Of a DNA stretch of 64,000 nucleotides, positions 18,680 to 49,218 are shown in pieces. The DNA is taken from positions 19,686 through 83,685 of IMG/VR virus record IMGVR_UViG_3300034197_000017; one strand, 5' to 3'. Source of the DNA: a virus. Its lineage: Duplodnaviria > Caudoviricetes. Numbering within the stretch: the first letter of the stretch is position 1; the number at the start of each line of letters is the position of its first letter. The position numbers and the translations under genes are program-made. The notes under the pieces are model-generated. The model did not search any database, was not told the DNA's origin, and worked only from the letters and a program-made list of their open reading frames with translations.

Positions 18680-19723
18680 TTAAGGTTTAAGCTGTCTAAT
18701 TACTTCTTTCAGTGCTGTCTGAAGAATCTCATCTCTCAGGTAGAAACTATCCTGATAAATGGTCTTAGACTCACCCATAGATGCAATAGCTTTCAGTCTA
18801 TCTAATAGAGTGAGTTTGGGGTAATTAGAGGGCAAAGCTTCACCAGGAAAGCAAACATCTGGTCTATAGCGGTAATAGACTAGATATTCATGGTAACTAG
18901 CTTCTATCTCATTGGAATGGAAGTCAAGGTTTAGCTTTGCTTCCTCTAAAGTCATTGGAGGTCTAACCTGACATGGATATCCATCTCTATTGGTTAAAAC
19001 TGTTTCTCCAATTAAATACTCTACTAATAAAGCTACAGTTTCTTCCCCTATTTCTCGTTGACTTTTATTTTCAGCCAATTTATCTCTGAATATAGGCATA
19101 AGGATAGTACCGAACATTGCATGAACATTCAAAGGTTTATCCTTAAATAATCTATCAGTCAGAGTAGAGGTATCGAAATAGTTAGGTTGTCCTTTAACTA
19201 CATCAGCAAGATAGTGACTTAAACAATCATGGTAATTACACATAGCACTCTCTAAGTTAAGAATTTCATAGATTGTGCTATTATGCATATCCTTATTTTG
19301 TTCCCAATAAGGTGTTAAGAAATAGTGAGATGCTCCTCTAGCATATAAGGCATTCAGAATACCGAATTTAATACTTTCCTGTATCTCTTTCTTATTCTCT
19401 GAGATGTAAGAATTTATAAACTCTTGGTTTTGTACAATATACGGCTCTAGTTTTTCTAACGCCTCTACTGCATCTACAGAAGTGAATAGCAACCCTTTAT
19501 TAAATATAGCCGTACCAATAATTAACTGATATAGAAAATCATTGATAAAACTCTTCTTATCCTTACCTTTATTGATATACCCTGTGGCAAGTCTCAATAC
19601 TTCTCTTTTGAATATAGTAGCCTCTTCATAGAATCTACTCTTATCAAAATGCCGTCCAGAGTAAGGCATTAACTCTGTCCAATATCGATTATTTATTAAA
19701 AAAAGTTCCTGAGCTTGAGTCAT
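18680..19723 (-). CDS. Hypothetical protein
   Basis: 347 aa ORF convergent with the + strand late operon. Confidence 0.6.
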   Translation of the reverse strand: MTQAQELFLINNRYWTELMPYSGRHFDKSRFYEEATIFKREVLRLATGYINKGKDKKSFINDFLYQLIIGTAIFNKGLLFTSVDAVEALEKLEPYIVQNQEFINSYISENKKEIQESIKFGILNALYARGASHYFLTPYWEQNKDMHNSTIYEILNLESAMCNYHDCLSHYLADVVKGQPNYFDTSTLTDRLFKDKPLNVHAMFGTILMPIFRDKLAENKSQREIGEETVALLVEYLIGETVLTNRDGYPCQVRPPMTLEEAKLNLDFHSNEIEASYHEYLVYYRYRPDVCFPGEALPSNYPKLTLLDRLKAIASMGESKTIYQDSFYLRDEILQTALKEVIRQLKP

Positions 19724-43022: not shown

Positions 43023-43065
43023 CTAAACCCGCTCTAGTAGCTCAGATGGATAGAGCAATTGCCTT

Positions 43066-43718
43066 CAATTGGAGCTTTTATAGCGAAACAAAAGCTATAA
43101 AATGCACAGCGCTATATCGGTGAAACCTTAACAGTTAGGCTGATGGTAATACCGAGGAAACTGACCAACAAATTACCCGTATGTTAGTGTTGTATAATAA
43201 AACTATATTTATAGTTTCTTTTATGCATCATTTTACAAAAAACAAAGGGGATTTAGGTGTATTAAAGGTAAAGGCAGATTTAGTATCTAAAGGCTATACT
43301 GTAGGCTCTTTGGATACCGAACATAGTCCTTTTGATGTGGTGACGTATAGAAACCAAGAATTCAAACGAATTCAAGTTAAATACCGTTCACTAAGGAAAG
43401 GGAAGTTAGAGATACGTTTTTCTTCTAGCTGGGCTGATAAACACGGTTCCCATGTTCGGTTTGTAGATAAATCAGAAATTGACGTATATGCAGTATACTG
43501 TCCCGAAACAGATTGCTGCTATTATTTTAATCCTTCTGACTACAAAAAAAGTTTGACTTTGAGAGTAAATGCATCTCTAAATAATCAGCAGCAAAATATA
43601 CACAACGCTGATGATTTTAGACAGGTTCCGTAGAGACTACACGCGTTGCACCTGTAATGGTGAAGATATAGTCCAGACCACAAACGTTTATGACGGTAAC
43701 TAAAGTTATAGTGGTACG
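43066..43718 (+). mobile_element. Group I intron (653 nt) with homing endonuclease in the P6 region
   Basis: Exon ends in U and intron ends in G; P1 with U43065.G43072; P2 TTTTATAGC/GCTATAAAA; P/Q TATCGGTGAAACC..GGTAATACCGAG; R CCGTAGAGACTAC; S GAAGATATAGTCC; P9.0 ACCAC/GTGGT. Confidence 0.9.
43181..43633 (+). CDS. Intron-encoded PD-(D/E)XK homing endonuclease, I-Ssp6803I-like (likely ATG 43223)
   Basis: TKNKGDLG..LVSKGY..PFDVV..KRIQVKY..EIDVYAVYCPETD.CY; the stop TAG lies within the R element. Confidence 0.85.
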   Translation: MLVLYNKTIFIVSFMHHFTKNKGDLGVLKVKADLVSKGYTVGSLDTEHSPFDVVTYRNQEFKRIQVKYRSLRKGKLEIRFSSSWADKHGSHVRFVDKSEIDVYAVYCPETDCCYYFNPSDYKKSLTLRVNASLNNQQQNIHNADDFRQVP

Positions 43719-43760
43719 CTAAGCAATCGGTCACAGGTTCAAGTCCTGTCTAGAGCGCTG

Positions 43761-43905
43761 TACCTAGACGTAGGTGCAAAACCATTTAGTAAAAGTAGAA
43801 GTGGTTTCAGGCACATTGCCTATGAGGTTCGACTCCTCACTACCAGCGTATTACCGGAAACGCTACTAAGTGATAGTGAGTACATTGCTGAAGCTAGACT
43901 AGGTG
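43761..43905 (+). ncRNA. Unassigned structured RNA with a tRNA-like T-arm
   Basis: Terminal helix TACCTAG/CTAGGTG; T-arm TGAGG-TTCGACT-CCTCA (43823-43839); further hairpins. Confidence 0.45.
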
Positions 43906-44169: not shown

Positions 44170-44634
44170 ATGAGCATTAAAAGAGTTTCCCTTCCTATAA
44201 TTATATTAGTAAAGCAGCAAGATATTCCTATTGAACGTCTTAATCCTGACAACGTAACTGTAGAATATGACTATACATTTGACCGTCATATTATTGAAGC
44301 AATTCATAGAGTAGCTTTAGGGGATAAGGAAGTAATTAGAGAAAAAGAAGATACCCACACTTACTATCATTCTGTAGCTGATAGTTTATGGGATAAATTA
44401 AAAGAAACTCTACTTGAATATCCTTTATTTAACTATTTAAGATATGATTTGAACTGGACATGGTTAGACGTAAAGTACAAAAAAATCCCATATTACACTT
44501 CTAACCTTATTACAGAAAAGCATTACCATATCTGCCCTTATCCAGTTAATGATACAAGTAGAGTTATAGAATTTATGACTGCATATCCAACAGCCATACC
44601 TATCGTAACCGATGAAATAGATGCACATTTTTGA
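44170..44634 (+). CDS. Hypothetical protein
   Basis: 154 aa ORF. Confidence 0.55.
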   Translation: MSIKRVSLPIIILVKQQDIPIERLNPDNVTVEYDYTFDRHIIEAIHRVALGDKEVIREKEDTHTYYHSVADSLWDKLKETLLEYPLFNYLRYDLNWTWLDVKYKKIPYYTSNLITEKHYHICPYPVNDTSRVIEFMTAYPTAIPIVTDEIDAHF

Positions 44635-45076
44635 AAAATCAAAATCAAGAGGAGTGCTTGGAGAGGAAATTGCTAGAGAGTTCTTTATATCTAAAGGATT
44701 TGAAGTATCCCCTCTCCTATCTATAGATGAACAGTATAGGAAAGGATATGATTTCAGAGTATCTAAACAGGGTATAGTCAGTAACATTGAAGTTAAAACA
44801 GATTTTCTAGCGGGATTTACTAAAAATATTTTCTGGGAAGTAGAGGTAGATGGTAAACCTGGATGGACTCAAAAATATGGTTCAGAGAGTACTGTTACTA
44901 TTTGTTGGGTTATACCAGATATCTCTCTAATATGCATTTTCCCTGCCAATAAGTTACTAGACATAGAGTATATAGACTATCCAGAGAAGGAAGTAATAAA
45001 TGAACATTACGTAGCTAAAGGTTTTCTAGTTCCACTTTCAATAGTCAAATCTAAATCTAAATCATTTCTGTATTAA
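44621..45076 (+). CDS. PD-(D/E)XK restriction-endonuclease-fold protein
   Basis: GVLGEEIA..GYDF..NIEVKTD..NIFWE. Confidence 0.65.
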   Translation: MHIFEKSKSRGVLGEEIAREFFISKGFEVSPLLSIDEQYRKGYDFRVSKQGIVSNIEVKTDFLAGFTKNIFWEVEVDGKPGWTQKYGSESTVTICWVIPDISLICIFPANKLLDIEYIDYPEKEVINEHYVAKGFLVPLSIVKSKSKSFLY

Positions 45077-47901: not shown

Positions 47902-48058
47902 TTTTAATTAATATCTTGACTCTAAACATGGAATGACCTATAGTAAGAGAATGCTAGTCGTTCGTTGATTGGCATCCTTTATAAACATCAATAAGAGGGT
48001 AGATAATATTTATCCTCTTTCCTTGGGGGAATGGTGGAATGGTATACACATCAGACTT

Positions 48059-48814
48059 GCTTCTTTAATATAAATTAAGTTATACTATAGGTGTTTTACA
48101 CTTGTAGGAACATGGATTTAATTTGTAGTAAATGTGGTCAATCTAGGGATAAAGGTAGAAAGATATGTAAATCTTGTAATTTAGAAAGAGTGCGAAACTA
48201 TCAAAACGATAAAAACAGAGCAGGAAAAAGAAAAAAGTATGATGTTGTTTGTCTAGCTTGTAGTAAGCAGTATCAATCTTTCAGAAATAAGCCTGTTCTT
48301 TGTGAAGAGTGTAGACTTCTAAAAAATAAAGGTAATGATGTAACAAATACTTACCTTTATTATGGAGATAAAAAATACTTTCACTTACATCGTAAAGTTG
48401 CTGAGCAGTGTATTGATAGAAAACTCAAAACTAATGAGGTAGTACATCACATTAACTGTAAGAATTTAGATAATCGCATAGAAAATCTAATTATTTTAAC
48501 AAGAAGTACACACTCTAAATTACACAGATACCTAGATACACAAAGAGTCATTATAGAGAAATCTATAAATGAGAATCCTGGAAATTGCTGGGATAACCTT
48601 ATAGCTCCCATGACTACAGCATGGTTAGAAATGACTGGTGCGAAAGTTATAAAACTATGGGAGATTGGTCAATCAGCAGCCGAGTCTCTAAAGGAATAGA
48701 TTCCCAAGAGAAAGGTTCAGAGACTACGCTCAGGACACCTTAACTAGAAATAGAAGGTGAAGATATAGTCCAGACTACAACAGGAAACTGGTTAATGAAA
48801 ATTAATGTAGTAAG
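48059..48814 (+). mobile_element. Group I intron (756 nt) with HNH endonuclease gene looped out of L1
   Basis: P1 exon GACTT pairs with GAGTC 48545-48549 (U.G at the splice site); P2 with GAAA loop; P AAATTGCTGGG; Q AATCAGCAG; R TCAGAGACTAC; S GAAGATATAGTCC; P9.0 ACTAC/GTAGT; terminal G. Confidence 0.9.
48091..48699 (+). CDS. Intron-encoded HNH homing endonuclease with N-terminal zinc ribbons (likely ATG 48112)
   Basis: HLHRKVA..NEVVHHINCKNLDNRIENL..HSKLH; three CxxC pairs plus C48-C61 region; 3' end reads through the intron core. Confidence 0.85.
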   Translation: MFYTCRNMDLICSKCGQSRDKGRKICKSCNLERVRNYQNDKNRAGKRKKYDVVCLACSKQYQSFRNKPVLCEECRLLKNKGNDVTNTYLYYGDKKYFHLHRKVAEQCIDRKLKTNEVVHHINCKNLDNRIENLIILTRSTHSKLHRYLDTQRVIIEKSINENPGNCWDNLIAPMTTAWLEMTGAKVIKLWEIGQSAAESLKE

Positions 48815-48885
48815 AAAATCTGACGCTTAATAGCTTGAGAGTTCAAATCTCTCTTCCCCCACTTTTAATTTATATTTAACTGTCT

Positions 48886-49218
48886 ATGGAAGAATCAGAA
48901 TGTAAACCAAAAAGAATTAGAGATAGAACTAGTCAATATTCAGGGGAGAAGAGAAGAAATAAGGCAAAAAAAGAAAAACTCTATACATTTTTATCAGATA
49001 AATGTTGTACAGATTGTGGTATCAGTGATATTAGATTACTTGAGTTTGACCATCTAGACCCTCAAACAAAAACTAAAGCAGTAGCTAGATTTATTAGTGG
49101 GGGATATAGCTGGGATAGGCTTTTAGAGGAGATAAATAAATGTGAAATAGTTTGTGCTAATTGCCATAGACTAAGAACCTACGGAAGAATGACCTGCTAT
49201 AGAAACCAAGCATCTTAG
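48886..49218 (+). CDS. Free-standing HNH endonuclease
   Basis: CTDCG..LEFDHLDP..EINKCEIVCANCHRLRT. Confidence 0.85.
   Translation: MEESECKPKRIRDRTSQYSGEKRRNKAKKEKLYTFLSDKCCTDCGISDIRLLEFDHLDPQTKTKAVARFISGGYSWDRLLEEINKCEIVCANCHRLRTYGRMTCYRNQAS

Follow-up and report, generated by a model that had tools for sequence, protein, structure and literature searches.

Classical IC3 group I introns of tRNA genes have a small core that includes P2 and lacks P2.1, and in their P1 a short stretch of exon pairs with the guide; they are exemplified by those in tRNA-Leu(UAA) of cyanobacteria and plastids, tRNA-Ile(CAU) of Azoarcus and tRNA-Arg(CCU) of Agrobacterium. These classical introns are not known to contain an open reading frame (ORF). 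The tRNA-fMet(CAU) intron of Synechocystis PCC 6803 encodes a small PD-(D/E)XK homing endonuclease, I-Ssp6803I (PDB 2OST). Here, we analyzed a stretch of 64,000 nt (the window) from a tailed-phage (Caudoviricetes) record of the IMG/VR collection (IMGVR_UViG_3300034197_000017, positions 19,686 to 83,685), in which a tRNA-Arg(UCU) gene at 43031-43757 is split in its anticodon loop. The insertion is very likely a mobile group I intron of the tRNA-Arg(UCU) class Arg.3Ug, residing in a tailed-phage tRNA gene.

The window intron resembles the Synechocystis system in being an anticodon-loop group I intron with a small ORF of the PD-(D/E)XK homing endonuclease type, and the two proteins share family PF11645, the D...QxK motif and the fold. 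The two systems differ in the host gene (tRNA-fMet-CAU versus Arg-UCU) and in the loop position, and the proteins are only 15-18% identical. The classical Leu(UAA) intron is inserted in the same register (CUU^) as the window intron, whereas the classical Arg intron differs both in the isoacceptor (CCU) and in its place in the loop (Arg.5Ug in Williams 2020).

Closer relatives have also been described. A preprint (Williams 2020) expanded the tRNA intron types from the four classical ones to 21, and an entry of its seed alignment, 'Rba190.Arg.3Ug', starts with CUUC-AAUA-GGAG, that is, with the same P1 as the window intron. Arg-TCT introns have also been reported for 'Maribeggiatoa' BOGUAY (Beggiatoa) and Thiomargarita nelsonii (Flood et al.; cited in PMC4853749). 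The known Arg-UCU introns share with the window intron the gene, the insertion point after the third loop base, P1 (CUU + C/U ... GGAG) and the terminal guanosine (omega-G), and the window core can be aligned over its full length with those of 57 bacterial introns. The window intron is distinguished by its tailed-phage carrier, an endonuclease whose nearest relative is 66% identical, compensated changes in P2 and P3, and a UAAA loop in P9b (L9b). For phages, a review (Hausner, Hafez and Edgell 2014) stated that all introns then known were in protein-coding genes, despite the many phage tRNA genes.

The split tRNA gene and the fold of its intron

The gene consists of the following parts.

43031-43065, + strand: 5' exon of tRNA-Arg(UCU), 35 nt, with acceptor, D arm, 5' half of the anticodon stem and loop bases C32, U33 and U34, ending in ...GCCTT
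43066-43718, + strand: group I intron of class Arg.3Ug, 653 nt, between U34 and C35, with omega-G at 43718
43719-43757, + strand: 3' exon of tRNA-Arg(UCU), 39 nt, beginning with CTAAGC, with C35, U36, A37 and A38, 3' half of the anticodon stem, 5-nt variable loop, T arm, acceptor and discriminator G (CCA not encoded)

When joined, the exons form a 74-nt cloverleaf that ARAGORN identified as tRNA-Arg(tct), with the anticodon loop C-U-U|C-U-A-A, and the insertion point is between U34 and C35 (loop CUU^CUAA). A homologous 5' exon was found in 59 loci by exon alignment, which replaced a brute-force splice-point search that was overly permissive. Default ARAGORN reported only a tRNA-Met in the window and made no call at 43031-43757. 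At its gathering score, Rfam did not report this region either, its sole window match being another intron at 48528-48794. ARAGORN -i, which allows introns, detected the split gene in a one-base-shifted parse as Ser(gct). This parse was rejected on account of its intron-final C, the 5-nt variable loop and the boundary ...G|CTAA kept in all 59 homologous introns. Standard pipelines (default ARAGORN and the Rfam gathering score) pass over this site, and the tRNA gene stays unannotated.

To describe the intron, we aligned 59 introns (that of the window, 57 bacterial and one viral) and drew helices P1-P9 in window coordinates, as follows.

43063-43074, + strand: P1 hairpin; in the last two digits of the positions, C63-G74, U64-A73, the splice-site wobble U65.G72 and C66-G71; guide GGAG at 43071-43074
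43076-43102, + strand: P2 hairpin, 43076-84 with 43094-102 and a GAAA-containing loop; compensatory changes in 9 of 9 pairs
43107-43112, + strand: P3 5' strand, partner 43643-43648; compensatory change in 5 of 6 pairs, 100% paired
43117-43155, + strand: P4 (the classical P and Q elements), 43117-22 with 43150-55, enclosing P5 and P5a
43126-27/43145-46 and 43132-34/43140-42, + strand: P5 and P5a, respectively, nested in P4
43156-43163, + strand: P6 5' strand, partner 43622-43629, with one conserved A/G mismatch; its loop L6 contains the ORF
43622-43629, + strand: P6 3' strand, made by the final ORF codons; the stop TAG (43631-33) follows in J6/7
43635-43673, + strand: 3' half of the catalytic core, with the P7 5' strand at 43635-39 (R element) and the P3 3' strand at 43643-48
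43649-52/43659-62, + strand: P8 hairpin, followed by J8/7 and the P7 3' strand at 43669-73 (S element)
43678-43714, + strand: P9 domain, P9.0 (43678-81 with 43711-14) enclosing P9a and P9b
43685-88/43692-95 and 43696-700/43705-09, + strand: P9a and P9b, hairpins inside P9.0

P3 and P7 cross and form a pseudoknot. The overall architecture (P2, no P2.1, short P5, and P9.0 with two hairpins) looks IC3-like.

The splice-site nucleotides are invariant. The base preceding the intron is U34 (U43065) and the last intron base is G43718; all 59 aligned introns end in G ahead of CTAA. The exon part of P1 is limited to C32-U33-U34, paired with the G-A-G of the guide GGAG. The pair corresponding to U43065.G43072 is U.G in 59 of 59 introns, with the neighboring C-G and U-A kept, and all P1 pairs are standard in all 59. 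A first hand-drawn P1 (GCCUU with GGAGC) was dropped: tRNAs with A31 keep GGAGCC, and the family alignment does not support that register. A first hand-drawn P5 (CCUUAA with UUAGG) was also abandoned.

Covariation supports the fold as a whole. For 60 base pairs in 12 helices, 95.8% of 3535 cells were standard pairs, compared with 35-45% in controls slid by 1-3 columns, and 39 of the 60 pairs showed compensatory change on both sides; the way in which the structure was derived inflates the percentage paired, not the count of compensatory changes. The covariation score was 0.418 versus 0.04-0.08 for the slid controls, and none of 500 shuffles reached the observed values. For example, the P4 end pair 43117/43155 swaps from U-A to A-U among the aligned introns. 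Where the window intron departs from helix columns that are at least 90% conserved, it does so in compensated pairs (43076/43102, 43084/43094 and 43111/43644); apart from these, it differs in one base of the L9b loop, in two exon bases of the anticodon stem and by insertions in L6. This pattern looks like that of a ribozyme under selection. The preliminary description of this locus, made from the sequence without database searches, had proposed a tRNA-Arg(UCU) gene split at U^CU by a group I intron with a U.G pair in P1, a terminal G and recognizable P, Q, R and S elements. The joined-exon cloverleaf, the P1-P9 fold and the covariation in 59 introns bear this out, and the named elements correspond to U43065.G43072, G43718 and the mapped strands of P4 and P7.

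A tRNA-like stretch lies directly 3' of the tRNA-Arg gene (43759-43905). It has a good T arm (GAGG TTCGACT CCTC) and a weak match to tRNA-Sec (16 bits, E 4.1), and received no ARAGORN call.

The endonuclease and the distribution of its clade

The loop of P6 carries the coding sequence of the endonuclease.

43223-43633, + strand: ORF of the putative homing endonuclease, 136 aa plus stop, PD-(D/E)XK family PF11645

Gene callers chose an upstream in-frame ATG (43181) that gives a 150-aa version; the family alignment sets the start at ATG 43223. The match to PF11645 covers profile positions 3-137 of 138 and scores 111.4 bits (E 4.4e-32; cut-off, 26.1 bits). The catalytic residues D38, Q51 and K53 are invariant in 27 family sequences and align with YDL...VQVK of 2OST. 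A family profile retrieved I-Ssp6803I (E 2e-4) with the D...QVK motif aligned, and an AF2 model (pLDDT 86.9) had chain B of 2OST as its first Foldseek hit (E 7.8e-9, TM 0.73 over 134 columns). A single-sequence phmmer search against PDB gave no match, and NCBIfam contained no family matching at E <= 0.01; relatives are named 'group I intron-associated PD-(D/E)XK endonuclease' by NCBI. The proposed kinship with I-Ssp6803I is thus upheld at the level of family and fold, the protein being a distant relative. It had also been noted that the end of the ORF runs into the R element; the stop TAG indeed lies in J6/7, two bases 5' of P7, and the alignment shows this overlap of the ORF end, the P6 3' strand and J6/7 to be conserved across the whole family. 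A TATAAT that had been suggested to drive separate expression is present at 43193, within a non-conserved AT-rich part of L6; the promoter scan passed over it, as it lacks a -35 element, and detected no terminator.

To see where the element occurs, a profile of the ORF was searched against bacterial assemblies with one genome per species (GTDB), which yielded 401 relatives. Among the best 80 loci, 57 had the ORF inside a tRNA-Arg(UCU) intron at the identical site. The clade was found in Gammaproteobacteria (within a Pro-Arg-His-Lys tRNA cluster), Bacteroidota, Bacillota and others. In IMG/VR, a strict 50-nt core pattern with 33 specified bases matched 33 contigs; in 27 of these, the flanking exons gave a tRNA-Arg(UCU) interrupted at this position by an intron of 229-654 nt. 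The viral count is a lower bound (at least 27 contigs), and the sampled contigs with the split gene carry phage replication genes. Many long viral introns at this site have an HNH_3 ORF in place of PF11645. Such ORFs (134-189 aa) were observed in the IMG/VR loci L142, L144, L133, L129, L132, L130, L135, L136 and L117, assigned by Pfam for five of the nine and by sequence motif for the rest. These results, together with the Arg.3Ug type of Williams and the introns of Beggiatoa and Thiomargarita, contradict the preliminary view that position 34/35 of Arg-UCU is an unusual site: according to both intron datasets and the literature, the site is already common. The intron belongs to a known and common class, and this position is among the commonest homes of the endonuclease family.

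The closest relative of the window endonuclease (66% identity) is borne by a tRNA-Arg(UCU) intron on a phage-like 56-kb contig, and the two form a supported clade in the protein tree (SH-aLRT 98, quick search), which also holds a free-standing copy beside an intact tRNA-Arg(UCU). A single-protein search of viral contigs with the endonuclease found nothing; the profile search did recover relatives. On the contig of the closest relative (a Logan contig, L108:1-5000), genes for Hen1_N, PNKP_ligase, Thg1 and AAA_33 lie beside the split-tRNA-Arg cluster, which suggests a gene set for RNA repair and tRNA editing.

A single endonuclease clade accompanies tRNA-Arg(UCU) genes in three layouts: as an ORF of their intron, as a separate gene next to an intact tRNA gene, and as a separate gene next to an intron that lacks an ORF. 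The intron-borne layout accounts for 61 loci. In 21 loci, an intact tRNA-Arg(UCU) is followed about 70 nt further downstream by a free-standing copy; these loci all come from viral collections or from short metagenome contigs, and they include those of Synechococcus phage Sf-FR1 (L106, PV340855.1) and Acinetobacter phage Herod (L107, MW316732.1). In IMG/VR, the gene is free-standing in 19 of 23 loci, in phage tRNA clusters, where it starts some 20-100 nt 3' of an intact tRNA-Arg(UCU) (free-standing phage-cluster loci are L084-L100, L102, L104, L106, L107 and L110-L111). In seven further loci (L012, L014, L029, L034, L042, L044 and L045), six from Nocardioidaceae and one from a metagenome-assembled genome (MAG) labelled Sphingomonas paucimobilis (L012), the gene and an intact, intron-less tRNA-Arg(UCU) are transcribed in divergent directions; in the protein tree, the seven group together in one supported clade.

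The third layout was seen in at least four Bacillaceae loci that were inspected (L006:1004-1911, L017, L061 and L069), and by ARAGORN call only in L009, L023, L024, L051 and L072; the genera are Neobacillus, Fredinandcohnia, Rossellomorea, Bacillus and Paenibacillus. There, a full-length endonuclease gene is located about 130 nt downstream of the tRNA, and the ORF-less introns (275-292 nt) still build the P6 3' strand from what were the final codons of the ORF. ORF-less derivatives occur in Bacillaceae and in viral contigs (the viral loci L114, L116, L118, L119, L131 and L140).

Free-standing endonucleases are also known from the tRNA region of phage T4, where SegB is a GIY-YIG enzyme and not a PD-(D/E)XK one. 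Clade copies about 70 nt downstream of intact tRNA-Arg(UCU) are similar in arrangement to SegB and other free-standing endonucleases of tRNA clusters (PMC13096335), whereas the window gene, being intron-borne, is unlike the Seg arrangement of T4.

Several observations were made alongside these searches. In LR756508.1:10705-13777 (L265), from a 484-kb uncultured phage in which they are unannotated, ARAGORN -i called two split tRNA genes 130 nt apart, with inserts of 193 nt in tRNA-Lys(UUU) and 175 nt in tRNA-Arg(UCU), the latter known from this call alone. The Lys insert has the guide GGAGCC and a CCGTAGAGACTA core, as in the Arg family. RF00028 had no match in LR756508.1 at E <= 0.01, and the huge-phage paper does not mention introns. 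The 23-bp joined-exon site of the window gene, GCAATTGCCTT|CTAAGCAATCGG, is present exactly in the intact tRNA-Arg(UCU) of at least 120 viral-collection contigs (L145-L224, from IMG/VR). These have a GC content of about 50%; many come from isolate genomes, possibly as integrated phages, and their tRNA shares 56-60 of 74 positions with that of the window. Finally, in a MAG labelled 'uncultured Halobacteria archaeon' (L056), the intron lies in a Pro-Arg-His-Lys-Leu tRNA cluster of gammaproteobacterial type, and the endonuclease groups among those of Gammaproteobacteria; this contig is probably mis-binned rather than a case of an archaeal group I intron.

Phage context and the second split tRNA gene

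The source record is 83.7 kb long and estimated to be 58% complete. Its proteins include a major head protein, portal, tape measure, primase/helicase and DNA polymerase. By DNA polymerase, the nearest cultured relatives are the Pseudanabaena phages Pam2 and PA-SR01 (42% identity). Both have tRNA-Arg(UCU) genes without an intron, and RF00028 found no match in either genome.

Three tRNA genes were detected on the contig, for Met(CAU), the split Arg(UCU) and a split Leu(UAA).

48025-48862: split tRNA-Leu(UAA), exons 48025-48058 and 48815-48862

The Leu(UAA) intron (756 nt) occupies the classical U^AA site, scores 73.9 bits with Rfam at 48528-48794 and contains an HNH_3 ORF (48091-48699) that extends into the ribozyme core. 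The intron pair reported for BOGUAY and Thiomargarita (cited in PMC4853749) corresponds to that of the window phage. On the contig, 67% of Arg codons are AGA and 43% of Leu codons are UUA, and both split tRNAs should therefore matter to the phage. No other tRNA-Arg was detected on the contig. The tRNA region of the window also holds a 151-aa nuclease-like ORF (44621-45076; weak NOV_C match, E 0.021) and a free-standing 110-aa nuclease-like ORF (48886-49218; weak HNH match, E 0.005).

Mobility and alternative explanations

The element is real and, judging from its family, probably works as a mobile group I intron, its endonuclease being of the PD-(D/E)XK homing type. The pre-tRNA would be transcribed with the intron, which would fold into P1 to P9. 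Free guanosine would then attack after U34, held in the U.G wobble with the guide GGAG; omega-G (43718) would enter the G-binding site, and the exons would be joined, giving a tRNA that reads AGA, the main arginine codon of the phage. By analogy with I-Ssp6803I, the endonuclease encoded in L6 may cut intron-less tRNA-Arg(UCU) genes near the anticodon loop, for example those of co-infecting related phages, and repair would copy the intron into the cut gene. Such mobility is supported by the patchy distribution of the intron, from which Pam2 and PA-SR01 are exempt, and also by the presence of two unrelated endonuclease families at one intron site.

Several points weigh against this interpretation. 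The window intron reaches 21.7 bits (E 0.004) with RF00028 in E-value mode, where a gathering score of 50 is set, and aligns over the 3' core only (J6/7-P7-P3'-P8-P7'). An ORF-less family member of the L006 type (Bacillaceae) likewise scores low (24.9 bits), and the support for the fold therefore rests on our own helix assignment. The structure was drawn partly from the window sequence and from the same alignment that was used for counting. The UAAA in L9b, which is GAAA in 54 of the 58 other introns, may make a tertiary contact less stable. Upstream of the endonuclease ORF there is neither a Shine-Dalgarno sequence nor a convincing promoter. Lastly, with the contig being partial (about 58%), a second, intact tRNA-Arg gene elsewhere in the genome is conceivable. 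As to the first point, the 12 seed sequences of Rfam include no bacterial one (Williams 2020), and we read the sub-threshold score as low sensitivity of the model, not as evidence against the fold.

The same L9b change and low Rfam score would also fit a decaying relic, in which the ribozyme, the endonuclease or both are dead and a pseudo-tRNA is tolerated. Decay does occur in the family, as indicated by broken ORFs in L007, L073, L054, L070 and L101 and by the ORF-less derivatives in Bacillaceae and viral contigs. However, the window ORF is full length with every family-invariant residue present, all helices pair, the departures from conserved columns are compensated on both strands, and the tRNA would read the predominant arginine codon of a contig on which no other tRNA-Arg was seen. 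We consider a relic improbable.

Another explanation, to which we give a slightly lower probability still, accepts splicing and holds that the endonuclease does not serve mainly for homing: it would be a weapon against the tRNA-Arg(UCU) of hosts or competitors, or the interrupted loop would shield the phage gene. The frequent free-standing position of the clade beside intact tRNA-Arg(UCU) in phage clusters (most IMG/VR loci, Sf-FR1 and Herod) points to a phage conflict over this gene; the identical 23-bp site is offered by the intact genes of the viral-collection contigs mentioned above, and two of the three tRNA genes detected in the window phage would be protected by introns. However, ordinary selfish homing predicts this pattern equally well. 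An assembly or annotation artefact, or some other element such as a protein-spliced intron or a ribozyme-free insertion, could be imagined from the silence of default tRNA and Rfam scans and the metagenomic source of the contig, but has next to no likelihood, as the same arrangement and junction nucleotides recur in 58 independent loci and further viral contigs, covariation supports a group I core and the 3' core aligns to RF00028.

Returning to the mobile Arg.3Ug intron, the preliminary description had taken a phage copy in a tRNA other than tRNA-fMet as a sign of retargeting. This does not hold: the clade is tied to tRNA-Arg(UCU) throughout, and any shift of target from tRNA-fMet would therefore be ancient and not an event in this phage. 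The role of phages as vectors of the element between phyla, also suggested earlier, is plausible; the endonuclease tree is unrooted and weakly resolved, and carriage by phages between phyla is not apparent from it.

The literature searched contained no account of group I introns in phage tRNA genes. They look common in databases and little described; our survey indicates that phage tRNA genes often carry such introns. A broader proposal would be that group I introns commonly reside in phage tRNA genes, that phages shuttle Arg.3Ug introns with PD-(D/E)XK or HNH endonucleases between phyla, and that splicing is a control point or a shield rather than the mark of a neutral parasite. We regard this as unlikely as a whole; if true, splicing would act in phage-phage and phage-host conflict over tRNA genes. 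For the window phage itself, two of the three detected tRNA genes (Arg-UCU and Leu-UAA) would need self-splicing, and these two read its commonest Arg and Leu codons. Thus, the supply of AGA- and UUA-reading tRNAs by this phage would hinge on ribozyme activity.

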